Source: Patella caerulea (lineage: Eukaryota). Taken from it: a DNA stretch of 64,000 nucleotides. The notes under the pieces were generated by a model. That model worked only from the letters and a program-made list of their open reading frames with translations, was not told where the DNA came from and made no database searches. The position numbers and the translations under genes are program-made. The DNA lies in contig JAZGQO010000002.1 in NCBI GenBank assembly GCA_036850965.1, positions 26,932,901 through 26,996,900 on the forward strand, written 5' to 3'. Of this stretch, positions 332 through 61,468 are shown piece after piece; within the stretch, counting starts at the first letter, position 1, and each line of letters begins with the position of its first letter.

Positions 332-3300
332 ATGGAAACCTGGGAATTGTACGCCAAGTATTTGGGGGAGCAAGGTTATCAGCTCAACGTTTTCTCTCGG
401 GCCATCTTTGGGAAGGCGATTTATCGGGGAACAAAACACGTCACAGGCACACCAAAACATCTGAACCTGTATTTACACGACAGGCATTACGACGTCATTA
501 CCTCCATGCCCGCCTTTGTAGAAAGGTCGTATTTTTGCGAGACCTGTCAAGTAGGATACGATCATGCCGAGATACATTCGTGTCACGTCATGTGTCATGG
601 ATGTAAGACAGTGGGTCCACCCTGTCCACCTGATCCCAACACAAAGACGTGTTACCGTTGTCATCGTGTGTTTGTGAGCCGCCAGTGTTTCGACAACCAT
701 CTCGCCACCCGTTCCAGAGCCAAGTGCAGTGTATGTTATCGATGGAAGAAATGTGAGAAATGTCAAAAAGAGTGGGACGTCATCAAGGCCAAGCGCAATT
801 TGGAAGAACACCGATGTGGAGAATACGAATGTTCCATCTGCCGAGAGTGGCACACGGCCGAGAAACAGTTTTGTTACATCCAACCACTGAAATCACCCAT
901 CGACATGAATAAAGACCGCAAGACCCAAATGGACAAACTACAGAAATCAACGTTGACCCGCTTCGTCTTCTTTGACTTTGAATGCCAGCAAGATACCGGT
1001 GAACACATTCCCAACCTATGTGTCCTGCAAACCTGCTGTCACTTTTGTATCGACAATCAAGATCCCTGCGAGCATTGCGACACGTACTGGAATCACCAAA
1101 GAGAAATGGTGTTTAAAGGCCCAGACACGCTGGACGATGTAGGAAAATGGTTTTTGCAACTCGCTGCACACGGTACGGTGGTAGATGGTCGGAAACATGA
1201 CAGTCACGAATCGAGTCCCGTGATTGCCGTGGCTCACAACTTTAAAGGTTACGACGGACTGCTGATTTTACAGACGCTGCACAAACATTCCGTGGCGCAA
1301 CCCGAAGTGATTATGAATGGCGGTAAAGCGATGACGATCACTGTCGGTACGGTAAAATTCATCGATTCCCTCAACTTTTTACCGATGGCTTTACGGGACA
1401 TGCCCAAGACCTTTGGCCTGCAAGAACTCAAGAAAGGTTATTTCCCTCACCACTTTAACAGACCGGAGAACGAAGAATACGTGGGCGCCTATCCTCCCGA
1501 CACCGATTACGATCCGGATGGCATGAGTGTGACTGAACGAGAAAAATTTCACGAGTGGTACCAACAACACAGTCACCACGTCTTTGATTTTCGCCAGGAA
1601 ATTCTCGCCTACTGTAAGAGTGACGTCGATGTCCTCCGCCGATGCTGTGGCGTGTTTCGAGAGATATTTCTCATGGACACGGGAATCGATCCCTTCGAAA
1701 AAAGTTTGACCCTGGCCTCTGCCTGCAGTCGCGTGTTACGCACGCACTACATCAAGAAAGACACCCTCGTCGTCATTCCTCGAGCCCTGATGCAAGAGCT
1801 AAAACTTGGTAAGGACTGGCACCGCTTCCAGCCTCGACAACAGTCCAACAAAGCCCTTCGATGGTTGGAATGGGAACAACATCAACAGACCATGGCAGCT
1901 TTCCGAAACCAGACCCCACTACCCAACATTCGACACGCCCGTAACGGTAGTGAATGCCGAGTTGGCCCTTATAGCTTAGATGGCATGGACAAGACCACGG
2001 GTACGGTGTACGAATTTCACGGGTGTGCCTTTCACGGTTGTCCCAAATGTTATCCGGGTCCCGTCCAAGACCTTCAGCATAAACATCCCTACGATCCATC
2101 TCGCAGTATGAGGGACTTGTACCAGCAGACCCAAGAACGTCACCGTCGACTCCAGGAACAGTACGGTATGCAGACCATCCGCGTCATGTGGGAGTGTGAG
2201 ATGGAGGAAGAACGACGCCACGATCCCGAGATGGACGAATTTTTACAAGGCTTGGAAGATCAGCAATGGCCCGCTCCCGAACCACTGATGCCCCGCAACG
2301 CTTTCTTCGGCGGAAGAACCAATGCCATCCAACTGTTGGTGAACGAGTCGGTGGAAGACATGCGCTACATCGACGTGGTGTCCTTGTACCCTTACATCTG
2401 CAAGTACGGTACCTTTCCCATCAAGGAACCCACGATCGTCACACAGCCCGATCAAGACCAGTGGCAACAGTACGAAGGGTTGATCCAGTGTTCCGTCTTG
2501 CCGCCCCGTGGCCTGTACCATCCAGTGCTCCCGTTTCGGAGCAAACAGAAATTGGTGTTTGCCCTATGTCGAAGCTGCGTCGACGAACACATGCAACAAG
2601 GGGAGATTGCCGAATACCAACCGTGTGAGCACACCGACGAACAGCGAGCCTGGGTGGGTACGTTTGTCACCCTGGAACTCAAGAAAGCGGTGACCCTAGG
2701 ATACCAAGTACTGAAATTCTACGAAGTTTGGCACTGGAAAGAATTCAGCACTTACGATCCCGAGGCCAAAACGGGTGGTCTGTTTACTGGGTACATCAAT
2801 CACTACCTGAAGAAGAAGATGGAAAGCAGCGGTTATCCCGACACCTGTCACACCGAAGAAGACAAGACCCGCTTCGTCAACGACGTGTACGACACGGAAG
2901 GTATTCGTCTGGATCCCGCGTCGATAAAACCCAACAAAGGGATGCGGGCGTTTAGCAAGTTACAATTGAACACAGCATGGGGTAAATTCGGACAGAGAGA
3001 CAACTTTCCCAAAACAGAATACATCACGGAGCCCAGCGTCTATTTTGAAAAAATGTTGGACGTGACCCAGACCGTACGAGATGTGCAGTTAGTCAACGAT
3101 AACATGGTCTTGATGGAAACGTTGAAAAAAGAAGAACACGTCGCACCCTGCCCCATCACCAACGTGGTTATCGCCGCCTTTGTCACTGCCCAGGCCCGTT
3201 TGAAACTCTATTCCGTCTTGGAAAAGTTGGGAGAAAGGGTATGCTATTTTGACACCGACAGCGTCATCTACCAATACCACGCCACGTCATGGAATCCCCC

Positions 3301-3673
3301 GGAAGGTTCTAGTTTGGGTCAGTGGAAGAACGAGTTGCCCGAAGATGTCACCATTCGAGAATTTGTTAGCGGAGGGCCAAAGAATTACGCGTACCGCCAG
3401 AGCGATGGAAAAACTGTATGTAAAGTCCGGGGATTCACCTTGAATTACCGTGCCTCCCAGCAGCTGAACTACGCCATCATGAAGGAGAATGTACGGCACG
3501 TCAATCAAAACGAGCCTCTGGTCATAGCCAATCCGTTCAAGATTACCAGATCACGTGACCGCCGTCTTTGGACACGCCCCGAGAACAAAAGATATAAAAT
3601 CGTGTATGACAAGCGGTTTGTTCAATTCAATGACGATGGCCAACCGAGCAACACTTACCCCTATGGATACTGA
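332..3673 (+). CDS. Protein-primed family B DNA polymerase (pPolB) with a Cys/His-rich N-terminal region.
   Basis: Exo I FVFFDFECQ, Exo II HNFKGYDG, Exo III YCKSDVDVL. Pol motif A DVVSLYPY, motif B KLQLNTAWGKFGQR, motif C YFDTDSV. Confidence 0.9.
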   Translation: METWELYAKYLGEQGYQLNVFSRAIFGKAIYRGTKHVTGTPKHLNLYLHDRHYDVITSMPAFVERSYFCETCQVGYDHAEIHSCHVMCHGCKTVGPPCPPDPNTKTCYRCHRVFVSRQCFDNHLATRSRAKCSVCYRWKKCEKCQKEWDVIKAKRNLEEHRCGEYECSICREWHTAEKQFCYIQPLKSPIDMNKDRKTQMDKLQKSTLTRFVFFDFECQQDTGEHIPNLCVLQTCCHFCIDNQDPCEHCDTYWNHQREMVFKGPDTLDDVGKWFLQLAAHGTVVDGRKHDSHESSPVIAVAHNFKGYDGLLILQTLHKHSVAQPEVIMNGGKAMTITVGTVKFIDSLNFLPMALRDMPKTFGLQELKKGYFPHHFNRPENEEYVGAYPPDTDYDPDGMSVTEREKFHEWYQQHSHHVFDFRQEILAYCKSDVDVLRRCCGVFREIFLMDTGIDPFEKSLTLASACSRVLRTHYIKKDTLVVIPRALMQELKLGKDWHRFQPRQQSNKALRWLEWEQHQQTMAAFRNQTPLPNIRHARNGSECRVGPYSLDGMDKTTGTVYEFHGCAFHGCPKCYPGPVQDLQHKHPYDPSRSMRDLYQQTQERHRRLQEQYGMQTIRVMWECEMEEERRHDPEMDEFLQGLEDQQWPAPEPLMPRNAFFGGRTNAIQLLVNESVEDMRYIDVVSLYPYICKYGTFPIKEPTIVTQPDQDQWQQYEGLIQCSVLPPRGLYHPVLPFRSKQKLVFALCRSCVDEHMQQGEIAEYQPCEHTDEQRAWVGTFVTLELKKAVTLGYQVLKFYEVWHWKEFSTYDPEAKTGGLFTGYINHYLKKKMESSGYPDTCHTEEDKTRFVNDVYDTEGIRLDPASIKPNKGMRAFSKLQLNTAWGKFGQRDNFPKTEYITEPSVYFEKMLDVTQTVRDVQLVNDNMVLMETLKKEEHVAPCPITNVVIAAFVTAQARLKLYSVLEKLGERVCYFDTDSVIYQYHATSWNPPEGSSLGQWKNELPEDVTIREFVSGGPKNYAYRQSDGKTVCKVRGFTLNYRASQQLNYAIMKENVRHVNQNEPLVIANPFKITRSRDRRLWTRPENKRYKIVYDKRFVQFNDDGQPSNTYPYGY
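3593..3600 (+). promoter_or_regulatory. TATA box (TATAAAAT) inside the pPolB 3' coding region, 37 nt upstream of the ATG of the death-domain gene.
   Basis: Spacing matches the other TATA-to-ATG pairs in this element. Confidence 0.45.
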
Positions 3674-4475
3674 CTTGCGGGTCTCGGGAACATGGCGAAC
3701 GAACGGAGAAGAGGACGAACCGGCAGAAAATATGATCGAGAAACTTAGACAACGATGGCTCAACTTTCGAGTGTTGAAATGTTTCCTGCCCATTATAGAA
3801 GAAAGGCAACACGAAGAGTGTATCGGCTGCAAGTACGAACATCCCAGTCAGAGATACCACTCGTGTCTGGGACTAGGCGTTTCTTCCATAACGGGTCAAC
3901 CCTCGCACCCCGTGGACGATTACAATCACTACCTTTGGGTGGACGAGCCGAAACTGCAAGACATCGATAACGTGCTAGGCAGTATGATGGACGATCCACG
4001 GGATCAAGTCAAGACGTGGGAGGACGAACAACGATGGCGAGAAGACGTCGACAAAGCCTTGAAAAAGTTCTGGACGGTGGTACCGGGCTTTAAGACCTCG
4101 TTGATCAAACGCAAAGACGAGTTTGTCGAACAGAAAGAAGACTCCATACGCCAGTGGATGGACGGTTTGCCGAAGAAAAAGAAACGATGGTCTCTGGATC
4201 AAATGGATATCAATGTCATGTCCGGCAACATGGGAGAAGACTGGGAATGTATTGGCAGACATCTGGGGATCAGAGAAGCGCGAATCAGTCAAGCCAAGAT
4301 GAGTCATCCCAACAACGCGCGCATGCAAATCTTCACCGTGTTCAATCAATGGCGACAAAAGCACGGTAATGGAGCCGACCTGATGACGTTGTTGGAAGCC
4401 TGTCACGTGAGTGAAGCCTTGATCGATTGGGACGAAGTGAAAAAGTACGTGGACAGCCTGGAAATCATAGACTAA
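3630..4475 (+). CDS. Element-encoded protein with a C-terminal death domain (DD superfamily).
   Basis: The C-terminal ~80 aa (GEDWECIGRHLGIREARISQ..PNNAR...FNQWRQKHGNGADLMTLLEACHVSEAL) aligns without gaps to the FADD/MyD88 death-domain pattern (NxGxDW..(L/I)(A/G)R.L, second W about 36 aa later, A..L..AL). Candidate ATGs are at 3630, 3636 and 3663; the ORF overlaps the pPolB stop. Confidence 0.55.
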   Translation: MTMANRATLTPMDTDLRVSGTWRTNGEEDEPAENMIEKLRQRWLNFRVLKCFLPIIEERQHEECIGCKYEHPSQRYHSCLGLGVSSITGQPSHPVDDYNHYLWVDEPKLQDIDNVLGSMMDDPRDQVKTWEDEQRWREDVDKALKKFWTVVPGFKTSLIKRKDEFVEQKEDSIRQWMDGLPKKKKRWSLDQMDINVMSGNMGEDWECIGRHLGIREARISQAKMSHPNNARMQIFTVFNQWRQKHGNGADLMTLLEACHVSEALIDWDEVKKYVDSLEIID

Positions 4476-4524
4476 ACAACGAACCAATCAAAACGAAGGA
4501 AAAGAAAGAACCAATCAAAAGCGA

Positions 4525-4551
4525 GTGACGTCACGACCAAGACTATAAGAA
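4525..4551 (+). promoter_or_regulatory. Promoter of the CCHC gene: CRE palindrome GTGACGTCAC, two CCAAT boxes (4484, 4512), TATAAGA at 4544.
   Basis: The motifs are read directly. After removing the SINE and one duplication copy, the TATA-to-ATG distance is about 43 nt. Confidence 0.5.
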
Positions 4552-4574
4552 GCGAAGTGTCAGACTGAAATTTC

Positions 4575-4722
4575 CAAAAACCGGGGGGTTGGGATGGCCT
4601 AGTGGTCTAGAGTGCCGCGCTTCGACCTCTAGCTGGCCGGTCACCTCTGGCTTGCGGCTGTGGTTTCGAGCCCTGGTGTGAGCGTATGTGGCATGGAGAT
4701 AGGGGCTCCTTCTCAACCTCGT

Positions 4723-4753
<31 letters not shown>

Positions 4754-4861
4754 ACAGCAAAGACCCCTGCGCGTGCGCTAAGATAATGAAAATCAAAAAT
4801 AAGACTTGTCTGCGATATCACCTTCGGTGGAAGCGGACGTTAAACACCAAGAACAACAACA
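4575..4861 (+). mobile_element. tRNA-derived SINE inserted between the TATA box and the ATG of the CCHC gene, flanked by an 11-bp target-site duplication ACTGAAATTTC (4564-4574 and 4862-4872).
   Basis: tRNA-like head with A/B boxes (TAGTGGTCTAGAG ... GTTTCGAGCCC), a conserved core and a (CAA)n tail. A second copy of the same head and core lies reverse-complemented at 26232-26522. Confidence 0.8.
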
Positions 4862-4884
4862 ACTGAAATTTCATTCTGCTCTCG

Positions 4885-5409
4885 ATGGCTAGTCAAGCTT
4901 GTTTCTCCTGTAACAATGTCGGACACTGGTATAGAGACTGCCCTGCTCGTTCCCAACAACAGCAACGAAAACCAAGACAAGACAGACCAGCCTACGGTTC
5001 CTATGGAAGTTGTTACCTCTGCGGAGAACCAGGACACTGGGCACCCCAGTGTGGAAAACGAACAGAAGCCCAAAAAGCGAAGAGTGATGAAGAAAGAAAA
5101 GAAACTGTCAAAAGAAAGTGTTACGGAATCAAGAGACCCACCGACGAAAATCACAAGTGCCTCAACTGTGGACAGCTCGGGCACGGCCTGCTCGAGTGCC
5201 AAGAAGAAATCCAAACAGAAAACAACTTTGAAGCCGTTGCCAGTCGCATGTTCGACAACAACATCGACATGCCCAGAGACAACACCCGCAGTCAGCGATA
5301 CTGGTTCTGGTGCGGAGAAGCGTTCGAGCTCTACAGACGATACAAAGAAAAAAAGAAAACAGCTGACGAAGCTTTCTATTCCACCGACTATTCTCCCGAC
5401 TACCAGTGA
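4885..5409 (+). CDS. Nucleic-acid-binding protein with three CCHC zinc knuckles (CX2CX4HX4C).
   Basis: CFSCNNVGHWYRDC, CYLCGEPGHWAPQC, CLNCGQLGHGLLEC. Confidence 0.7.
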   Translation: MASQACFSCNNVGHWYRDCPARSQQQQRKPRQDRPAYGSYGSCYLCGEPGHWAPQCGKRTEAQKAKSDEERKETVKRKCYGIKRPTDENHKCLNCGQLGHGLLECQEEIQTENNFEAVASRMFDNNIDMPRDNTRSQRYWFWCGEAFELYRRYKEKKKTADEAFYSTDYSPDYQ

Positions 5410-5722
5410 AAACGGTGAAACTTCGAACGGTGAAATCCCGAAGACGGCTGTCCTCTTGTTGGCAGAGAAGGAAGCAGAAAGTTTTTCCCGAGCACTCATC
5501 CAATATGCGGGCCCGAGAGATATGACCGAAGTCTTGTCGTATCCCCCTTGTTTCGATATGAGTGAATGGATACCCGTCGTCGTCACGTTTGCTGAAGTGG
5601 AAGACTGGCACCCACACGACACGATGCAGAAGCTTTTGGGACATGTGTATTGGATTCCTCGCGTCCTGAGAAATGTACCCTGGGTGAGACAAGAGATCCT
5701 GAAGAGAGAACGCGATAACTAA
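5410..5722 (+). other. Protein-like ORF continuing past the CCHC ORF stop in the +1 frame (C-terminal part of the 4916-5722 ORF). Possible frameshift or spliced C-terminal extension of the CCHC protein.
   Basis: Non-random sequence (…EVEDWHPHDTMQKLLGHVYWIPRVLRNVPW…) fills the otherwise ~460-nt gap before the next promoter. Confidence 0.3.
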
Positions 5723-5869
5723 TTTTTTCTTTTCCTTTGTATGATATGTTCTATTGAATGTTCTTTTCCTTTGTATGATATGTTTGTTGCATTGAATGTT
5801 CTTTTTGTATTTTTAGTAAAATAAATTGTGTTCTAATTTCACTCCATGTCTGTTGTTCTGGCGCGAAGG

Positions 5870-5877
5870 TATAAAAG
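5870..5877 (+). promoter_or_regulatory. TATA box (TATAAAAGG), 43 nt upstream of the ATPase ATG. A poly(A) signal AATAAA lies just upstream (~5821).
   Basis: Direct read. Confidence 0.5.
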
Positions 5878-5912: not shown

Positions 5913-6524
5913 ATGGATGTGACGTTCAAACATCCCTTTACCATGTTAGTCAGTGGTCCAACGGGTGTTGGGAAAACGGTCTTTGTGCAGAAGTTTCTTC
6001 AAGCGTCCCTGTTCGACGTCCCTCCCCAACGTATCGTGTGGGCTTATGGCGAATGGCAAGAGAGTTACGATCGCTTTCCCTACACTTATGTCAAAGGTTT
6101 GACGGATATTGACGACGTGATGGGTCAAGTCAAAGGTCCACAAGTCTTAGTCGTGGACGATTTGATGGGAGAAGACACGGAGATATTGCAAAAGTGGTTC
6201 ACGAAAAAGAGTCATCACCACGACACGAGTGTCATTTACATTGTGCAAAACTTGTTTGACAAGCAACAGCGTACCATCAGTCTGAATGCTCATTACTTGG
6301 TCTTGTTCAAAAATCCCCGAGACGCCTCGCAAATTGGTGTGTTGGCCCGTCAGATGTACCCTTCCCGTTCCAAGTATATGCAAGAAGCTTATGAAGATGC
6401 GACGAGTACCCCTCGCAGTTACTTACTCGTTGATTTGAAGCCCGACACACCCGAAGCTTTGCGACTGAGATCCAACATTTTACCCCAAGAGGAACCACCC
6501 ATCGTCTACGTCCAAAAAGTATAA
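5913..6524 (+). CDS. P-loop ATPase, putative genome-packaging ATPase (A32/IVa2/FtsK-HerA-like).
   Basis: Walker A GPTGVGKT, Walker B VLVVDDL, downstream YIVQN. About 204 aa. Confidence 0.6.
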   Translation: MDVTFKHPFTMLVSGPTGVGKTVFVQKFLQASLFDVPPQRIVWAYGEWQESYDRFPYTYVKGLTDIDDVMGQVKGPQVLVVDDLMGEDTEILQKWFTKKSHHHDTSVIYIVQNLFDKQQRTISLNAHYLVLFKNPRDASQIGVLARQMYPSRSKYMQEAYEDATSTPRSYLLVDLKPDTPEALRLRSNILPQEEPPIVYVQKV

Positions 6525-7573: not shown

Positions 7574-8026
7574 ATGGAGACACTGCGGTATCTCTTGAAC
7601 ACTGCACCGAAAGACCGTCCCCTTTTACTCGAGACCCAACCCATTGTCGACGGTGTGTGTGAGTGTATTGGAAACCTGATTCGCGGCAACGTTCCTGTGA
7701 CCGACAAAGAAGTCAAGCGCTTGAAAAAGGACGCCCCCTTGTTACGACGTTTGGGCACGTCTAAAACACCTTGGAAGACCCGTCGGCGACTTTTGAAGCA
7801 ACAGAAAGGGGGATTCTACACTCGATTGTTTCGGTCCTTTCCCAAAGATGAAATTCGCCAAGAAAATGAAACTGGTACCCTTCGAGGGACTCCCCGACGT
7901 CAAACCCGTCGAAGTCAGGCCAGTCGAACCCGTGTACGATCGAGATCCACTGCAGCAGGCCGTCGAGAATGTCCACCAAGACATGCAACACGTGCTAAAC
8001 GATCCCACCCTAACCGACGAAAATAA
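7574..8026 (+). CDS. Hypothetical protein with an Arg-rich C-terminus. Overlaps ORF 7848-8537 in another frame, so only one of the two may be real over the overlap.
   Basis: ATG follows the TATA box at the canonical spacing. The tail (…RRQTRRSQASRTRVRSRS…) could be an out-of-frame artefact. Confidence 0.35.
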   Translation: METLRYLLNTAPKDRPLLLETQPIVDGVCECIGNLIRGNVPVTDKEVKRLKKDAPLLRRLGTSKTPWKTRRRLLKQQKGGFYTRLFRSFPKDEIRQENETGTLRGTPRRQTRRSQASRTRVRSRSTAAGRRECPPRHATRAKRSHPNRRK

Positions 8027-8537
8027 AATGCAACGGTACGGACAGTTGTTACATCGTTATCAAACGATGCAAAGGAAAAGAAAACAGGTTGTTCCCTTGT
8101 TGGACGACAACATACCCGAGCCAAGAGAAGAAGAAACTTCGGAGGCACCCATCCTGGAGTCGGTCCCTCGACCTTATCAACACCGAGCTCGCCTTTTGTT
8201 GAAACACATGAAAGAAAAGACACCTTGGTCGTGGAACGAGAACTTGGAATTGGTTCGGAATGGGGTACCCGTACCCAACACCAATGCCATTGACATTGTG
8301 AACGATTTGGTTCGTCGACGAAAGAATACCCAGGCTCCCGTGGGATGGTTTGGCGTGATGCAAAGTTTGAAGGCCACGAACGTACCGCGCGAAGCCATCG
8401 GGAATCAAGAACGATGGAACGTGTTGTCCACACCACCGACACGGACTCCGCCGCGACGCCCGAGAAAGAAGAAAATCTCCAGTACGGATACGCCTAGTAT
8501 ACCTACCAGAAGATGGCTCTCCTTGCAAAAACTATAA
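7848..8537 (+). CDS. Hypothetical protein (229 aa), possibly a virion or assembly protein.
   Basis: Long GC-rich ORF with protein-like composition ending at the next TATA box. No recognisable motif. Confidence 0.4.
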   Translation: MKFAKKMKLVPFEGLPDVKPVEVRPVEPVYDRDPLQQAVENVHQDMQHVLNDPTLTDENKMQRYGQLLHRYQTMQRKRKQVVPLLDDNIPEPREEETSEAPILESVPRPYQHRARLLLKHMKEKTPWSWNENLELVRNGVPVPNTNAIDIVNDLVRRRKNTQAPVGWFGVMQSLKATNVPREAIGNQERWNVLSTPPTRTPPRRPRKKKISSTDTPSIPTRRWLSLQKL

Positions 8538-18482: not shown

Positions 18483-21400
18483 TGTCGAACGTAGAACAAA
18501 TTGCAACAAAAGGTTTTTTGTTATATATTGACTCAGTATGATGTCCTAAGTAAGGAAATGAAAGTTTACCAAAATCGGAGTCCAAATAAGGACAGGGGGC
18601 GTGGCCAAATCCAAGATGGCGGCTGTCGATCAAAACTCGTGAATATCTCTAAAACTATTGGATTTAGACACCATAAATGTATTGCGGACAGATAGGAAGT
18701 CGGTATCAGCGAGTCCAAAAATGGCGACGTTATGTCTCTATGACGTCATGACGTTACTGTGACGTCACAACGGCATATCAGACGTCGCATTTTTTTCCAA
18801 AACCAGTCCATTTACACGCGTGTTTACAGTACAAACGAATGCTGATGCAGAGAAAAGGATATTCACATTATGGGTTCATAAAGAAGAACAATGTGTTACA
18901 CTAACGTAGAAGGGGGCTAATAGTATATGACTCTGACAGCATTGTCGTAAATTGATACTATTGCAGTAGCCGTAGGAACGCGCATTCGTATCAAATGTTG
19001 ACAAAAATAGTTTACACCAATTTTAAGAAATGAAATGAAATGTATGACCAACTGTTCTGCTCCCCTCTAGGTTCCATCAGTTTGATGCGAGGAGAATTTT
19101 GCCATGCAGTGGTGCAACGACACTCTTATATCGAATTCCCACTGCTAAGGGTTCTTTTCCTGGATCAGTGCATTCAAGGCTGACTGCTCTTGACGTTTGG
19201 CTCACTCAGAAGTAGTTTAATCCCCAAAAGGATTTATATTTTGACACAGGTGTCGTCTAGATTTGTTACAAAACCGATCTGGACCGAAATGCGAACAACA
19301 CCCCCTGGTAGTGTTTCTGAAAGCATAACTTAGAGAATTACGTTTCGGGAGCTACTTTCACATGGACAGACAATACCAGCGTCAAAATTTAAAATATTTG
19401 TTTAGAACTGAAATAAATGAACTAACTATAAGTCAATCTCCAGGCTAAAAACATTAACAGAATTGATTGTGTATATCTGGAATAGACACGACCGAAGCAC
19501 AAAACAGTGCAAGATGGTGGCCGCCATGAACCCCCATTCGCTGAAGCTGTCATTGAAAACGACGTAGATGTTATTTTTTGTGAAAAATCATTGAAATCAT
19601 GTTGGGGCTGTACGGATTATATAGCCCTTAAGGTTGCAAAGCAAACAATGTAACGTGTTGTGGAATGTGGATGTTGACATTTTGACTACTAAATGTGTCT
19701 GAGATAACTTCTCCACAGGTAGCGTGTATCAGATGTTCCGATTGTACCACAGATTTTAAAACGGTGAAAATTGGTCTACCCGATCTTTACGTTTTGCCAC
19801 TGGCTCTAGCTGAAATGATACTAGTCCGGCAGTCAAACACCAGGTGAAGTCTTGCGATGGAAATAAAGCAGGGCCCGTAACAGGGGGAAGGCAACTGGGA
19901 CACTTGTCTAGGTGTCTAGAACTCAGAAGGTACCAACAGTATGCCAAGTAATGTTTTCAACAACATTTGTTGGTTTAAAGGAACAAATATAAAAAAATTT
20001 TACTTGATCGTAAAACAGAAGAAAACCGGTAGCTTTTCTGAATGTTGGTACCTAGTTCCAGGGGTAAGATTAGAATTGGATTTTGTCAGTTCACCTTTTT
20101 GGGAATAATTGGTAAATCTAGAAATGTAAGTCACCTGCCCAGACCTTACTGCAGTGTGGCTCCGACCCGTTCTCGTTTCGTTTGATGCTATCATCATCGT
20201 CAGGGTGTCCCGGTCAAGTCCGGGCCTGAAGAACGCTTCGATGAACTAATGATCCAGTTACCCCAGCCATAAAATATGCCTAGTGACGCTAGAGACTAGG
20301 TGTTTTGCCAAACGTTTTGCCGAGTTGCTTGTCCCAGGGTCATGAAATAAAGACAATCTAATGTTTTTCGATAGATTATATATCTTTAATATGTGTCGAT
20401 TCAGAATGTTGCCAATTTGAATACATATTAGTATTCCAATATGACGGCTTTATTACAAATATGGCCAAATTTTGCGTGAAATTTCGATGTTAGCAATGTG
20501 ATTGTATAATACGTCAAATCGTAGGTTTTCGAAGTAGACAAATTAATACCTCAATCACAAAATGTGCCATGGCCGATTAAAACACCATTATGGGACTCAA
20601 ATTCGACAAAATATCCATGTTCAGGAGATCATGGAAGAAAAAAGTAAATTTAGCATTTCAGATATGAATTCGGCTACCTGGAAAACCTCCAGTTTAAACG
20701 TAGTACACTATCTTATTACCATAACTACCGTGCTTATTATCTCAGTTTGGGTAGAGCTGTAGGACGTTAAACCCCGCCAATGCGAATATAGCGGTCAAAT
20801 TGAAATACCTTCCTGGAACATATTTTATGTTGATATCTGAATTATGGGTACACTAAAAACATACACAGGGAACTTTGTGATTTTCTCTCAAAATTGGTTC
20901 CATTTTGATTTTGTTTTCCTAGCAGAATTCGCCGTCACTTTTAGGGGGGGGGGGGCGATTCCAAAGCTCTTTGGATTCAACGAGTCGTATTGGTGACAAA
21001 TATTAGAACTGCTTCAAAATCGGGTCTAAAATAGCTATGTAAAGATGGTAGAATCAATTTTGAGGATGAGAGCGATGATGCAGTGGCCAAAAAGATAAAA
21101 ACAAGCGACATTAAGGAGCTCAGTGAGGCCATGTTTTGACACCCATTTCTGCTTGTACTGGGGAAGTGCATTGATTGTTGAATGAGCAGTGCCTATCGAT
21201 TTTCACCTTTTCGAACTCGTATCTGCCCAGATATGATCCGGACCCCCAAAACACCACTCTTAATTAATGCTTTTCGGGACATTACCGCCAAAAATGGTTT
21301 TGTAGCACATCTCGGGAACATCTAGGAAATTTGTGTCAAAATAAAAAAATTTCTGATAATCTTTAGGCCGAATGTCAAAGTTGATCAACCCCCGCCGATT

Positions 21401-22018
21401 CAAACTTTGATGCAATTCTCCAGTAAAGTGCGTAGGCCGTTGCGGCATTGCAGGACACATTTTCCCTCATGGCACAGCGGGATGGCCTAGTCGGAGTAGA
21501 CCAATAGGATGCATAACCCCATTTCGTTTCATTTCTCCCAACAATTGAAATGAATCCGGGTTCCTACAGCTACACTATGGTACCACCTACCGACAATGCA
21601 GCAATATTTGTTTACTTTAAACCTCCTACATTATTGTAACGTTTTGTTCTTCTCTGCATCAGCATTTGTTTCTGCTGTTAACATGCGTAAATGGACTGTT
21701 TTTGGAAGAAATGCGACACCTGATATGCCGTTGTGACGTCACAGTAACGTCATGACGTCATAGAGACATAACGTCGCCATTTTTAGACTCGCTGGTACCG
21801 ACTTCCTATCTGTCCGCAATACATTTATGGTGTCTAAATCCAATAGTTTTAGAGATATTCACGAGTTTTGATCGACAGCCGCCATCTTGGATTTGGCCAC
21901 GCCCCCTGCCCTTATTTGGACTCCGATTTGGGTAAACTTTCTTTTGCTTACTTAGGACATCATAATAAGTCAATAGAAAACAAAAAACCTTTTGTTGCAA
22001 TTTGTTCTACGTCAAATG
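18483..22018. mobile_element. Non-autonomous DNA transposon, ~3.5 kb, with ~400-bp terminal inverted repeats (TIR-L 18483-18870, TIR-R 21630-22018) and no long internal ORF.
   Basis: The two segments are near-perfect reverse complements and hold ATGACGTCATGACGTTACTGTGACGTCAC (stacked CRE-like palindromes) and AAGATGGCGGC. ORFs 18501-18695 and 21806-22000 are mirror images of each other. Confidence 0.7.
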
Positions 22019-25719: not shown

Positions 25720-26344
25720 TAATCTGAAAGATGAGTTGCCAGGCAATGAAACATACACCCACGGCGGCTAAATCGTCTGGGTAGTCAACAAGGGTTGTCG
25801 CATATTTTTACTTTTTTCGGTAATAAAACATTTGTAATATACTAAAATCTGATTAAGAGTAACAACTCATTAAATAATTATCAGAAATCATTAGAATTTG
25901 TTTGGTTTTTATAAAGTTTTGCTCCATGCTAATGTTAAGTATACGAAACATTTAATATCATGGATTTAGCTGTTCACTTATATCAAAATTCACTGAAAAT
26001 CAAAATACTTGTTTGTTTCAAGACCTTAAACTCTGTATCAATCTGAATTTAACCGGATGATAAGTTTGTCCTCAAGAGTGTTACATGATTTTTCAAAGTA
26101 ATCAAGGGAGATAATGTTGTCAGTAAAAATCAATAGGCTTCTTTGTCTCATGACAGTAAACACTGTGTATAAATTTCAAGTCAATTGGATATTAACTTTG
26201 GCCTCTAGAGCGTCCACAAGATTTTTTGAAGAGAGAGAGAAATGGGGTTTAAAGTCCACTCAACACAAACTAGGTCATTTCGGGACTAACATATGGTTTC
26301 ATTTTATTTCAATAATTCGCTTGCGCGTAGGGGTCTTTAGCAGT

Positions 26345-26375
<31 letters not shown>

Positions 26376-26700
26376 ACAAGGTTGAGAAGGCGCCCCTATC
26401 TCCATGCCACATACATACACACTAGGGCTCGAAACCACAGCCGCAAGCCAGAGGTGACCGGCCAGCTAGAGGTCGAAGCGCGGCACTCTAAACCACTAGG
26501 CCATCCCAACCCCCCGGTTTTTGGAAGTGATCAAAGACCATAACACTGGCAGTAATTTTCAGGAAACACTGAAAATCAATAGGCGTCTTTGTTTCATGAC
26601 CTTAAACACTGTGTATAAATTTAAAGTCAACCGGATATTAACTTTAGCCTCTAGAGCGTCCGCAAGCAATTGTGCTCTTTTCTATTTTTTCATTATATTA
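25720..26700 (+). mobile_element. HINE-like element copy (5' region plus ~150-bp monomers), disrupted by a nested SINE and 3'-truncated.
   Basis: The 5' region matches 28740-29040. Monomers match the 29040-30120 array. Confidence 0.6.
26232..26522 (-). mobile_element. tRNA-derived SINE (same head and core as 4575-4861, different tail) inserted into a satellite monomer.
   Basis: It is the reverse complement of the SINE head. The host monomer sequence GATTTTTTGAAG|TGATCAAGG is split by the insertion. Confidence 0.75.
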
Positions 26701-28739: not shown

Positions 28740-30196
28740 AATCAAAAAGATAGGTTGCCAGGCAACGAAACATATGCCCACAGCAGCTAAATCGTCCGGG
28801 CAGTCAACAAGGGTTGTCGCATGTTTTTACTTTTTTTGGTAATGAAACAACTCATTATGTAATTATCTGAAAATCATTAGAATTTGTTTGCTTTTAATAA
28901 AGTTTTGCCCCACTCTATCAATTAGTATAAGAAACATTTAACATCATGGATTTAGCTGTTCAGTTATCAAAATTCACTGAAAATCAAAATACTTGTTCGT
29001 TTCAACACCTTAAACTCTGTGTATCAATCTGAAGTCAATTGGATGATAAGTTTGGCATCTGTAGCGTCACAAGGTTTTTTGAAGTGATCAAGGGAGATAA
29101 CTCTGGAAGTAATTATTTGAAATCAATGAAAGTCAGTAGGCTTCTTTGTCTCATGACCTTAAACAGTGTGTGTAAATTTAAAGTCAATCAGATATTAACT
29201 TTGGCCTCTAGAGCGTCAACAGGATTTTTTGATGTGATCAAGGGCCATAACTCTGGCAATATCAGAGATCGCTGAAAATCAATAGGCTTCTTCGTCTCAT
29301 AACCTAAAACACTGTGTATAAATTCAAAGTCAATCGGATATCAACTTTGGCCTTTAGAGCATCCACAAGGTTTTTTGAAGTGATCAAGGGCCATAACTCT
29401 GGCACTAATTATCGGAAATCGCTGAAAATCAATAGGCTTCTTCTTCTTATGACCTTAAACACTGTGTATGAATTTAAAGTCAATCGGATATTAACTTTGG
29501 CCTCTAGATCGTTCACAAGATTTTTTGAAGTGATCAAGGGCCATAACTCTGGCACTAATTATCAGAAATCGTTGAAAATCAATAGGATTCTTTGTCTTAT
29601 GACCTTAAACACTGTGTATAAATTTAAAATCAATCGGATATTAAGTTTGGCTTTTAGAGCGTCAACAAGATTTTTTGAAGTGATCAAGGGCCATAACTCT
29701 GGCACTAATTATCAGAAATCGCTGAAAATCAATAGGCTTCTTCGTCTTATGACCTTAAACACTGTGTATAAATTTAAGGTCAATCGGATATTAACTTTGG
29801 CTTTTAGAGCGTCTACAAGATTTTTTGAAGTGATCAAGGGCCATAACTCTGGCACTAATTGTCGGAAATCGCTGAAAATCGATAAGCTTCTTCGTCTTAT
29901 GACCTTAAACACTGTGTATAAATTTAAAGCCAATCGAAAATTAACTTTGGCCTCTAGAGCGTCCACAAGATTTTTTGAAGTGATCAAGGGCCATAACTTT
30001 GGTAGTTATTATCGGAAATCGCTGAAAAGCAATAGACTTCTTTGTCTCATGACCTCAAACACTGTGTATAAATTTAAAGTCAATCGGATATTAACTTTAG
30101 CCTCTAGAGCGTCCACAAGCAATTGTGGACGCCGGACCGACGGACGGACGGGGGCAACGACAATATACGACCACATTTCAATGTGGGCGTATAAAA
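28740..30196 (+). mobile_element. HINE-like element: ~300-bp 5' region, seven ~150-bp monomers, palindrome GTCCACAAGCAATTGTGGAC, (GGAC)n microsatellite, hairpin terminus.
   Basis: Terminus …GACCGACGGACGGACGGGGGCAACGACAATATACGACCACATTTCAATGTGGGCGTATAAAAAG. The 300-aa ORF 29314-30216 is an artefact of the monomer length being a multiple of 3. Confidence 0.7.
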
Positions 30197-58559: not shown

Positions 58560-60753
58560 AACCAGACTTTTTTCTATAAAGATAGGCTGGCACTGCCAGG
58601 CAGGATACGCCCACATTTTCGAGAGATGGATAGAGAACAAGCAATACCAAAAGTGATTTTTCCTACATCATTAAGTTAGAATTTGATATGTGCAAATATT
58701 GAAATGAATTAAGATATTTGGGTTAGAAAGGTTCATTTCAGTAGGCTTCAAATTCGACTGGGGATCATGTTGCTAAGTGGGTAAGATGCTGGCTTGGTTG
58801 CCTTGAGGTTTGGTGTTTGATCCCTGCATTGGGTGACAAAGTTCATCTAGATTTTCTAGCGTGGTTTCCCCTTGTTCGTGATGAAGGATGGATGGCCTGA
58901 CAAGAACAGCTGTCAATTTTAGTCCGATTTTCACGAAATTCGACCTCAACCTTCATTATGATGTAACGGTGATATAATCAAACGTTTTTTTAAATGGGAT
59001 AATAATTCTGACCCCAGAGGGACCACAAGCTAAAAAAGATAGGCTGGCACTGCCAGGCAGGATACGCCCACATTTTCGAGAGATGGATAGAGAACAAACA
59101 ATACGGAAAGTGATTTTTCCTACATCATTAAGTCCTGTATTTCATACTGTATTGGGAGCAGCCATTTTGTTGGTCAGTTCCAGTCTGATATTCATGAAAT
59201 TCGAAGTCGACAATGATTATGGTGTGACGGTACACAACCTAGAAATGTGACTTTTCGTCAAAATCGGATAAGAATTGTGACCTGTACAGAGTCAACAACC
59301 ATGATATACCATATCTTTACACTATTCGCGTACAAACGGCGACCATTTCGTCCGGCAATTTTGGTACCATTTTCACGAAATTCGAATAATTCAGGAAGTT
59401 ACGATCCGATATGCGCAAATACCGAAAGGAACCAAGATCTTTGGGTTATAACCATGCATTTCAAGTTTCATCAAAATCGAATTAAAATTGTGACCTTTAC
59501 AGGGTCCACAACCTTGATATACCATTTTTTAACAGTATTCACGTACAAACGGTGGCCATTTTGTATGGCAATTTTGGTCTGATTTTCCCGAAATTCGAAC
59601 TCAACCTTCCTTACGGTGTAACGGTAATATAATCAAACGTTTTTTTAAATCGGATAATAATTGTGACCTCCAAGCTAAAAAAAAAGGCGATTTTGCGTAT
59701 AATCAGGGGCCATAATTCAGGAAGTTACGATCCGATATGCGCAAATATCGAAAAGAAGCAAGATCTTTGGGTTATAACCTTGAATTTCAAGTTTCATCAC
59801 AATCGAATCAAAATTGTGACCTCCACAGGGTCCACAACCTTGATATACCATTTTTTAACAGTATTCGCGTACAAACGGCGGCCATTTTGTATGGCAATTT
59901 TCGTCCGATTTTCCCGAAATTCGAACTCAACCTTCCTTAGGGTGTAACGGTGATATAATCAAACGTTTTTTTAAATCGAATAATAATTGTGACCTCCAAG
60001 CTAAAAAAAAGGCGATTTTGCGTATAATCAGGGGCCATAATTCAGGAAGTTACGATCCGATATGCGCAAATATCGAAAGGAAGCGAGATCTTTGGGTTAT
60101 AACCATGAATTTCAAGTTTCATCAAAATCGAATCAAAATTGTGACCTCCACAGGGTCCACAACCTTGATATACCATTTTTTAACAGTATTTGCGTACTAA
60201 CGGCGGCCATTTTGTATGGCAATTTTCGTCCGATTTTCCCGAAATTCGAACTCAACCTTCCTTAGGGTGTAACGGTGATATAATCAAACGGTTTTTTAAA
60301 TCGAATAATAATTGTGACCTCCAGAGGGACCACAAGCTAAAAAGGGTGATTTTTCGGATAATCAGGGGCCATAATTCAGGAAATTACATTCCGATAGCCG
60401 CAAATATCGAAAGGAACCAAGATCTTTAAGTTACAAACATGCATGTCAAGTTTCATCAAAATCGGTTCAAAATTGTGACCTCTATAGGGTCCACAAGCTA
60501 AAAACGTGATTTTTCGTACAATCAGGGGCCATAATCCATGAAGTTTTGATCCGATACATGCCAATATCGAAAGGAACCGAGATCTTTTGGGGATAAACCT
60601 ATATTTCAAGTTTCGTCAAAATCGGATAAGAATTGTGACCTGTAGAGAGTCCACAAACAAATTGTGGACGGACGTCCGGACGGACGGACGGACGTCCGGA
60701 CGGACAGGGGCGACGACATAATACGTCCACATGAAAATGTGGGCGTATAAAAA
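58560..60753 (+). mobile_element. HINE-like element with a ~325-bp satellite array (~5 monomers, 58890-60660), palindrome GTCCACAAACAAATTGTGGAC, (GGAC/GTCC)n microsatellite and hairpin terminus. ~100-bp direct repeats lie at 58563 and 59037.
   Basis: AATCAGGGGCCATAATTCAGG recurs at 59703 and 60028 (period 325). Terminus GACAGGGGCGACGACATAATACGTCCACATGAAAATGTGGGCGTATAAAAAG at 60706-60753. Confidence 0.7.
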
Positions 60754-61468
60754 GGTCATTTTTCGTACAATCAGGGGCCATAATTCAGGAAGTTACGATC
60801 CAATGGGCGCAAATATCGAAAGGAACCAAGATCTTTGGGTTATAAACATACATGTCAAGTTTCATCAAAATCGGTTCAAAATTGTGACCTCGATAGGGTC
60901 CACAACCTTGATATAACATATTTTCACACTATTCGCGTACAAATGGCGGCCATTTTGTTTGTTAATTTTGGTCCAATTTTCACGAAATTTGAACTCAACC
61001 CTCATTACCATGTAACGGTGATATAATCAAACGTTTTTTAAAATCGGATAATAATTTTGACCTCCAGAGGGACCACAAGCTAAAAAGGGCGATTTTTCGG
61101 ACAATCAGGGGCCATAATTCAGGAAGTTACGATCCGATGGGCGCAAATATCGAAAGGAACCAAGATTTTGGGGTTATAAACATGCATGTCAAGTTTCATC
61201 ACAATCGATTCAAAATTGTGACCTCTATAGGGTCCACAAGCTAAAAACATGATATTTCGTACAATCAGGGGCCATAATCCATGAAGTTCTTATCCGATAC
61301 ATGCCAATATCGAAAGGAACCGAGATCTTATGGGGATAAACCTATATTTCAAGTTTCGTCAAAATCGGATAAGAATTGTGACCTGTAGAGAGTCCACAAA
61401 CAAATTGTGGACGGACGGACAGGGGCGACGACATAATACGTCCACATGAAAATGTGGGCGTATAAAAA
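60754..61468 (+). mobile_element. Second, shorter HINE-like element of the same 325-bp family, directly abutting the first (2 monomers plus terminus).
   Basis: Identical terminus at 61420-61468. Confidence 0.65.

Follow-up and report, generated by a model that had tools for sequence, protein, structure and literature searches.

Overprinted viral genes that are reached by leaky scanning include the paramyxovirus P/C pair, the influenza PB1/PB1-F2 pair, and the polyomavirus ALTO or middle T gene, which lies in the +1 frame of large T. Polintons/Mavericks are regarded as integrated viruses, most of whose accessory genes are uncharacterised. Here, one gene unit of a Polinton was analysed in a 64,000-nucleotide stretch of the genome of the limpet Patella caerulea (GenBank assembly GCA_036850965.1, contig JAZGQO010000002.1, positions 26,932,901 to 26,996,900 of the forward strand; hereafter the window, with position 1 as its first letter). 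The unit, at 4885-5722, encodes a protein with three CCHC zinc knuckles in one frame, overlapped by a longer open reading frame (ORF) in the +1 frame. Both frames were conserved, each was under purifying selection outside their mutual overlap, and the +1 frame was kept stop-free across the overlap. We consider it reasonably probable that the unit gives a dual-coding mRNA read by leaky scanning, with two proteins made from neighbouring start codons and not fused.

Several features of the unit are those of the viral leaky-scanning overlaps. In both, the second of two AUGs follows the first at a distance of between a few and some tens of nucleotides and opens a different frame, which is kept free of stops through a long overlap. 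In both, too, the recognisable domain belongs to the older frame, and the overprinted segment is basic and disordered. The first AUG of the viral cases is in a weak context; here a pyrimidine stood at -3 of the first ATG in all but one of the loci compared. The unit differs from the viral cases in its host, an animal Polinton/Maverick, which is a double-stranded DNA element with ordinary monocistronic, TATA-driven units. A further difference is that the overlap does not include the conserved globular domain of the second protein, so that a neighbouring gene seems to have been extended upstream into the knuckle gene.

The knuckles themselves resemble the nucleocapsid (NC) of retroviral and retrotransposon Gag, with identical CX2CX4HX4C spacing and with aromatic and Gly-His residues at the usual places. 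The closest PDB sequence matches were retroviral Gag/NC chains (E 1.5e-6 to 1e-4), over the knuckles only. A first-pass annotation of this DNA had raised the possibility of a captured Gag-like gene, and of this the knuckle motif alone was borne out. A family profile search of the window protein and its four relatives returned zinc-knuckle families only and no Gag or capsid domain. Unlike Gag, the family carries three to five knuckles and a family-specific RYWYWCGEA segment and has no adjacent pol gene; its neighbours are the PolB, Death-domain and A32-like ATPase genes of a DNA element, not a reverse transcriptase. Recent capture in this copy is contradicted by the comparison of loci, in which the gene was a stable syntenic component of the Polinton lineage. 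Cellular multi-knuckle proteins of the CNBP/ZCCHC type are as plausible a source of the knuckle gene as a retroelement.

A second resemblance is to Gag-Pol-type fusions (Ty1/Ty3 +1 frameshifting, antizyme), in that a knuckle ORF is followed by a startless +1 ORF near the upstream stop. The unit differs from such fusions in having no conserved shift site and in a +1 frame that is open over the whole upstream ORF with an AUG of its own. Polintons, Mavericks and adintoviruses carry accessory genes, for example anti-apoptotic genes and 'Oncoid' genes (Starrett et al., 2021, PMC8502044). The unit is like these accessory genes (PMC8502044) in being lineage-specific and placed around a core of PolB and ATPase. 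Unlike the described accessory genes, neither a CCHC-knuckle gene nor a relative of the +1 C-terminal domain was found in the searchable literature, which likewise gave no description of overlapping genes in Polintons, Mavericks or adintoviruses.

The knuckle protein and the +1-frame protein

The two reading frames and their parts were placed as follows.

4885-5409, plus strand: frame-0 ORF of 174 amino acids with three CCHC zinc knuckles and a conserved C-terminal segment (ORF list, Pfam, homologues)
4900-4941, plus strand: knuckle 1, CFSCNNVGHWYRDC, residues C6-C19, exact CX2CX4HX4C, matched by Pfam zf-CCHC and zf-CCHC_2
5011-5052, plus strand: knuckle 2, CYLCGEPGHWAPQC, residues C43-C56, exact CX2CX4HX4C, the best zf-CCHC stretch (residues 42-56)
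5158-5199, plus strand: knuckle 3, CLNCGQLGHGLLEC, residues C92-C105, exact CX2CX4HX4C, preceded by a conserved KRP..(E/D).NH(K/R)
4916-5722, plus strand: +1-frame ORF of 268 amino acids, with ATG at 4916-4918 (context gtaacaATGt), the first ATG after the knuckle ATG
4916-5407, plus strand: overprinted N-terminal half of the +1 protein, predicted disordered, rich in S, T, P, K and E, with basic clusters
5441-5719, plus strand: conserved C-terminal alpha/beta domain of the +1 protein, residues 176-268 (alignment and AlphaFold2)

The DNA comparison set consisted of the window, two close copies (L001 and L006), and loci L002, L003, L004 and L005. In all intact loci the knuckle ORF was whole in one frame and an ORF of 268-308 codons was open in the +1 frame. 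The unit always lay between PolB and the ATPase, in limpets (Patella and Lottia) and in a Tara metagenome scaffold (L004), where the order was PolB, knuckle unit, ATPase. L005 (Lottia gigantea KB202656.1, 9400-10534) was a decayed copy whose knuckle frame jumps via indels. Profiles of both proteins recovered no further loci from IMG/VR and JGI metagenome contigs, and exact look-ups with the window's two proteins and with the Patella proteins P0018, P0024 and P0025 returned no DNA record.

The three perfect knuckles named in the first-pass annotation were genuine. The 174-amino-acid protein scored 40.2 bits with Pfam zf-CCHC (PF00098; gathering cut-off 20.8; E 2.9e-10), the same profile matched five of five family members (best E 4e-21), and 12 of 12 metal ligands were invariant in the alignment of five homologues. 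The first knuckle begins five residues from the protein start. The family layout comprised two to four N-terminal GHW-type knuckles, a KRP..NH(K/R)CLNC..LGHG..EC knuckle, and a RYWYWCGEA.E..RRY segment; four knuckles were counted in L003 and five in L004. Within knuckle 3, the pattern NH(K/R)CLNC..(L/M)GHG...C was kept in five homologues. The conserved C-terminal segment of the window protein reads ..F..LFDNN..PR.N.R..RYWYWCGEAFE..RRY.., and the 3' tails of the knuckle ORFs beyond the conserved parts were alike in neither sequence nor length among homologues.

A search of 5.8 billion proteins for relatives of the knuckle protein returned P0001 (84% identical, 174 amino acids) and P0002 (46%), the remaining matches being generic CCHC proteins. 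The four homologues were 84%, 46%, 40% and 39% identical to the window protein, and the knuckle proteins of the four diverged lineages were 39-49% identical to one another. Judged from its domain type and from the position of its gene between a protein-primed polymerase and a packaging ATPase, the knuckle protein probably belongs to the module for replication and packaging of the Polinton, as a chaperone or as a binder of single-stranded nucleic acid.

The +1 ORF spans the whole knuckle ORF region from the second ATG, 31 nucleotides after the first (4916-4885), and continues for 104 codons beyond the knuckle stop. Its overprinted part contains the basic clusters KPKKRRVMKK, KKKSK and KKKRK, and this composition and its basic clusters recurred in four of four lineages. 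In the AlphaFold2 model, residues 1-172 had a predicted local distance difference test score (pLDDT) below 50 and no secondary structure. The predicted disorder coincided with the overlap, after which a confident fold began (pLDDT 79-93 over about 90 residues). Disorder that matches an overlap and is followed by a fold is typical of overprinted proteins.

Invariant positions of the C-terminal domain were A, G.R, P, W..VV, D..Q...G..YW.P and W, 14 invariant residues altogether, and homologues down to 27% identity occurred in limpet genomes and marine metagenome. A word-indexed protein search with the domain returned nothing; an exhaustive HMMER search returned six proteins. The best match was 99% identical and was one of at least eight annotated P. 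caerulea proteins of 266-269 amino acids that match the long +1 ORF. In P0020 (308 amino acids) and P0023 (289 amino acids) the domain was 30-35% identical, and their N-terminal parts resembled an out-of-frame translation of the knuckle gene. The equivalent +1 ORFs were 272 (L002), 308 (L003) and 289 (L004) amino acids long. The L. gigantea protein XP_009060752.1 (177 amino acids) was a remnant of the +1 ORF. Gene models of P. caerulea contained only the +1 ORF and missed the knuckle protein, and prokaryote-style gene callers split the unit wrongly.

Selection on the two frames and openness of the +1 frame

Selection was measured by Nei-Gojobori estimates of omega between the window and L001, whose knuckle proteins are 84% identical. 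Over the overlap (4916-5406), omega was 0.21 in frame 0 (0.13 in the knuckle part), 0.94 in the +1 frame and 1.19 in the +2 frame. Past the knuckle stop, omega was 0.17-0.21 in the +1 frame, 6.5 in frame 0 and 1.6 in the +2 frame. The first-pass annotation had described a protein-like +1 ORF that continues to 5722 and had left open which frame is conserved among copies downstream of 5409. Conserved coding in the +1 frame was confirmed there (omega 0.17 against 6.5 for frame 0). The ORF is not, however, a mere continuation of the knuckle gene, as it is open across the entire knuckle ORF from the second ATG. Past the knuckle stop, three close copies showed no indels other than those of 21 and 15 nucleotides; being in-frame, these indicate that the linker at about 5410-5450 is also read in the +1 frame.

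The same data bear on the view that the downstream +1 ORF is no gene at all, being a chance ORF or a decayed remnant of a 3' untranslated region (UTR). The C-terminal domain had no Pfam, PHROG, PDB or fold match, as that view would have it. The conservation pattern refutes it: low omega was confined to the +1 frame, the 14 invariant residues were kept in homologues at identities as low as 27% from limpets and marine metagenome, and the predicted fold was confident. We give this explanation practically no credence.

In the window, L001, L006, L002, L003 and L004, the +1 frame was stop-free over the whole knuckle ORF (165-215 codons), and the +2 frame contained 5-12 stops over the same ORF. The probability of an open +1 frame from the second ATG was estimated in four diverged lineages under a null model in which synonymous codons were resampled with each knuckle protein sequence fixed. 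Using the codon usage of the window's Polinton genes, this probability was 0.044, 0.015, 0.058 and 0.029 in the four lineages (joint probability about 1e-6); with pooled usage it was 0.025, 0.013, 0.035 and 0.023. Each gene's own usage, a conservative choice, gave 0.039-0.14 (joint probability about 7e-5). No +1 stops were observed in the knuckle ORF, against 1.8-2.7 expected per lineage. The model was calibrated on 13 control genes, most of which showed stop counts near expectation.

Start codons, transcription unit and translation

The elements that frame the unit were as follows.

4511-4515, plus strand: CCAAT box (consensus reading)
4526-4533, plus strand: cAMP response element (CRE)-like motif, TGACGTCA (consensus reading)
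4544-4549, plus strand: TATA box, TATAAG (consensus reading)
5820-5825, plus strand: poly(A) signal AATAAA, after the +1 stop, closing the unit
5870-5877, plus strand: TATA box of the next gene, TATAAAAG (sequence reading)

The elements at 4511-4549 read as the likely promoter of the knuckle unit. CCAAT, CRE and TATA elements stood in the same order before the knuckle ATG in L001 and L006, and CCAAT and TATA elements in L002, L003 and L004. Across loci there was a single CCAAT/CRE/TATA promoter, 40-60 nucleotides before the first ATG, and no promoter was found between the two ORFs in the loci examined. The leader was about 11-30 nucleotides long as estimated from TATA positions only. In L002, L003 and L004, an AATAAA or ATTAAA signal occupied the same place, between the +1 stop and the TATA box that follows. 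The next promoter lay where the first-pass annotation had put it, directly behind the end of this unit. Within the 3' UTR, 5727-5800 contained a short direct duplication in which ttttcctttgtatgatatgtt occurs twice; the L006 contig stops behind the first of these two units.

The +1 frame was opened, in all intact loci, by the next ATG after the knuckle ATG, 4-31 nucleotides downstream with none between. The offset was +31 in the window and L001, +22 in L003, +19 in L004 and +4 in L002, where another +1-frame ATG follows at +31. Position -3 of the first ATG was a pyrimidine in the window, L001, L003 and L004. The +1 ATG had a purine at -3, and also G at +4 in L003, in L004 and at the second +1-frame ATG of L002.

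These arrangements suggest one RNA polymerase II transcription unit, from the promoter at about 4511-4549 to the poly(A) signal at 5820, that would carry two overlapping frames. Initiation at the first AUG (4885) would give the 174-amino-acid three-knuckle protein. Ribosomes that bypass it would start at 4916 in the +1 frame and make the 268-amino-acid protein, whose N-terminal 165 residues would be a disordered, basic, overprinted reading of the knuckle gene and whose C-terminal 90 residues would be the conserved globular domain encoded past the knuckle stop. Such bypass is plausible given the pyrimidine at -3 and the short leader. Transcripts that start just past the first ATG may offer an alternative entry to the second AUG.

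The need for an upstream entry follows from the downstream domain itself. Between 5410 and 5520 the +1 frame contained no ATG, and its first Met was at 5521, 37 codons past the knuckle stop. This Met was replaced by Phe in L004 and L005 (GPRGF), and about 15 residues upstream of it were conserved, which argues against its being the start. The conserved part of the domain began at most about 20 codons past the knuckle stop in every lineage. Thus, translation must enter the +1 frame from upstream, the domain itself being without a start codon.

A contrary explanation is that the downstream domain is an independent small protein, made from a non-AUG codon or from the internal Met at 5521, for example by termination-reinitiation, and that the open +1 frame is a by-product of a purine-rich, hydrophobic-poor composition. 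Prokaryote-style callers did give a protein of 101 amino acids from GTG in L002 and one of 66 amino acids from the internal Met in L006. Few stops were expected in the +1 frame (about two to three), so that the signal of openness rests on few sites, and the +1 frame showed no amino-acid constraint in the overlap. The lack of the internal Met in L004 and L005, the conserved residues upstream of it, the joint probability of four open frames even at its conservative value, and the +1 ATG that adjoins the first ATG in every locus all speak against a small protein. Reinitiation after an ORF of 170-220 codons is, moreover, not expected in eukaryotes. An independent small protein is therefore improbable in our judgement.

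Several points also weigh against the dual-coding mRNA read by leaky scanning. The context of the first ATG is strong in L002 (G at both -3 and +4), and leaky scanning there would depend on the short leader alone. The +1 frame within the overlap was under no amino-acid constraint, its omega of 0.94 reaching 1.55 in the knuckle part. Synonymous conservation of the knuckle gene was only marginally above that of control genes (an excess of 16 identical codons; Cochran-Mantel-Haenszel p about 0.05, from non-independent pairs), and synonymous divergence (dS) between the window and L001 was 0.30, compared with 0.27-0.47 in neighbouring genes. There were only about four independent lineages, and the Patella annotations that match the long ORF are gene predictions and not evidence of expression. 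Finally, we infer from the sequence the use of the second AUG, leaky scanning, and the functions of both proteins.

Frameshifting and splicing

The first-pass annotation had proposed a frameshifted or spliced fusion. A programmed +1 (or -2) frameshift, or transcriptional slippage, near the 3' end of the knuckle ORF would yield a Gag-Pol-like fusion besides the 174-amino-acid protein. The layout is typical of frameshift fusions, with a downstream domain that lacks a start codon and whose conserved part starts no more than about 20 codons past the knuckle stop, and an A7 run was present at 5348 in the window. This run was found in the window only (AGAAAAA in L006, AAAAAC in L001), however, and homopolymers of at least 6 nucleotides were missing from L006, L002, L003 and L004. 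No +1 shift motif of the Ty1, Ty3, antizyme or PA-X type was found in any locus, and the 3' tails of the knuckle ORFs, where such a shift would lie, were not conserved. A shift at the 3' end would also leave unaccounted for the openness of the +1 frame over 165-215 upstream codons in four lineages, and the +1 ATG that directly follows the first ATG would be unexplained. One P. caerulea gene model, P0025 (KAK6173476.1, 278 amino acids), started in the knuckle frame and went on in the +1 frame, as a shifted product would. Its switch comes after residue 22, not near the 3' end, and it looks like a copy with a 1-nucleotide indel or a gene-model artefact. Frameshifting is thus an unlikely account of the unit.

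Splicing could instead join part of the knuckle ORF, or just its first codons, to the downstream domain as a fusion or isoform. It is possible in principle for a nuclear element of an animal host, and lenient scans gave GT...AG pairs of suitable phase in each locus. The donors were all weak, however, with 6-7 of 9 matches (the best, 7 of 9, in L003), which is chance level at lenient thresholds, and neither donor nor acceptor positions were homologous between lineages. The 15- and 21-nucleotide indels of the linker past the knuckle stop were in-frame, as expected of an exon read in the +1 frame, and the long-range openness of that frame would again be unexplained. We regard splicing as quite unlikely. 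Across the loci, then, a search for slippery and splice signals produced no conserved shift site, no conserved homopolymer and no strong splice pair, and the proposed fusion leaves both the open +1 frame and the adjacent ATG without explanation. Two separate proteins from neighbouring start codons would account for both.

A putative short interspersed element in the leader of the window copy

The leader of the window copy was interrupted by one further feature.

4575-4861, plus strand: tRNA-derived insert of 287 bp resembling a short interspersed nuclear element (SINE), between the TATA box and the first ATG, in the 5' leader

The insert was flanked by an 11-bp target-site duplication, ACTGAAATTTC, at 4564-4574 and 4862-4872. 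It was missing from the alignment of the collinear copies L001 and L006 and is therefore specific to the window copy. Its sequence contained motifs resembling an A box and a B box, as well as an (AAC)n tail, and ARAGORN and Rfam returned no hit on it. It may be a Nin-type SINE of limpets. A second copy, inverted and 95% identical over 190 nucleotides, was located 21 kb away at 26337-26526. The insert adds upstream ATGs at 4686, 4693 and 4787. With a SINE-like insert in its leader and three upstream AUGs, the window copy is probably poorly expressed, though both of its ORFs are intact.

Polinton context and gene order

The element was identified as a Polinton, as the first-pass annotation had it, from profile matches to a protein-primed PolB, an rve integrase with chromodomain and an A32/FtsK-like ATPase found together within the window. 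The genes around the knuckle unit were as follows.

332-3673: protein-primed PolB (PF03175, E 9.8e-40)
3555-4475, plus strand: Death-domain gene (Pfam PF00531, E 3.9e-10), directly upstream of the knuckle unit
5913-6524: A32/FtsK-like packaging ATPase (AAA_16 and Pox_A32 matches weak, under Pfam cut-offs)
8679-9578, plus strand: integrase with rve (E 3.5e-11) and chromodomain, a separate gene 3 kb from the knuckle gene

The knuckle gene was present as a single copy within the 64-kb window. No terminal inverted repeats were found in the window, which begins inside the element, with the left end outside. Related elements also contained BIR (IAP-like) genes, and Death-domain or BIR accessory genes were located at 1386-2000 in L002, 91-585 in L004 and 362-1180 in L006. 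From their sequences, the Death-domain and BIR genes look like the apoptosis-modulating accessory genes of large DNA viruses.

In the integrase gene, the +1 frame contained 5 stops against 12.2 expected by synonymous-codon resampling (0 of 1000 simulations were as low), and it was not fully open. Other plus-strand Polinton ORFs overlapped one another by tens to about 180 nucleotides: 7574-8026 with 7848-8537, and 10015-10899, 10896-11366, 11341-12708 and 12611-13216 in series. These overlapping ORFs (7574-8537 and 10015-13216) had no Pfam match, and they may be capsid-module genes and may involve introns or further overlaps. Satellite-like tandem repeats occurred behind the Polinton genes and further along the window, as arrays at 14720-16760, 28960-30160 and 59240-61410 whose periods were about 145-150 bp and about 325 bp. 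Several other dispersed repeats were present, for example inverted 315-nucleotide arms at 18489-18803 and 21698-22012.

Significance

To our knowledge, the unit would be the first documented overlapping gene pair of a Polinton and would represent the first Polinton family of CCHC-knuckle proteins. We put somewhat better than even confidence in this assessment, by which a conserved dual-coding gene consists of a CCHC-knuckle gene overprinted in the +1 frame by the N-terminal extension of its neighbour, whose C-terminal domain is without detectable relatives in sequence or fold. As a candidate factor for protein-primed replication or packaging, the multi-knuckle protein might bind single strands or condense the genome; we know of no such factor assigned in Polintons. 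The +1 protein would add a conserved domain that has no known relatives. Several recent intact copies are present in limpet genomes, and expression is directly testable there.

If the dual-coding reading is true, Polinton DNA elements use the translational tricks of small viruses. A conserved two-frame gene would indicate selection for coding economy as in small viruses, and such economy would in turn suggest that selection acts on a genome that infects or replicates, and on more than a transposon in decay.

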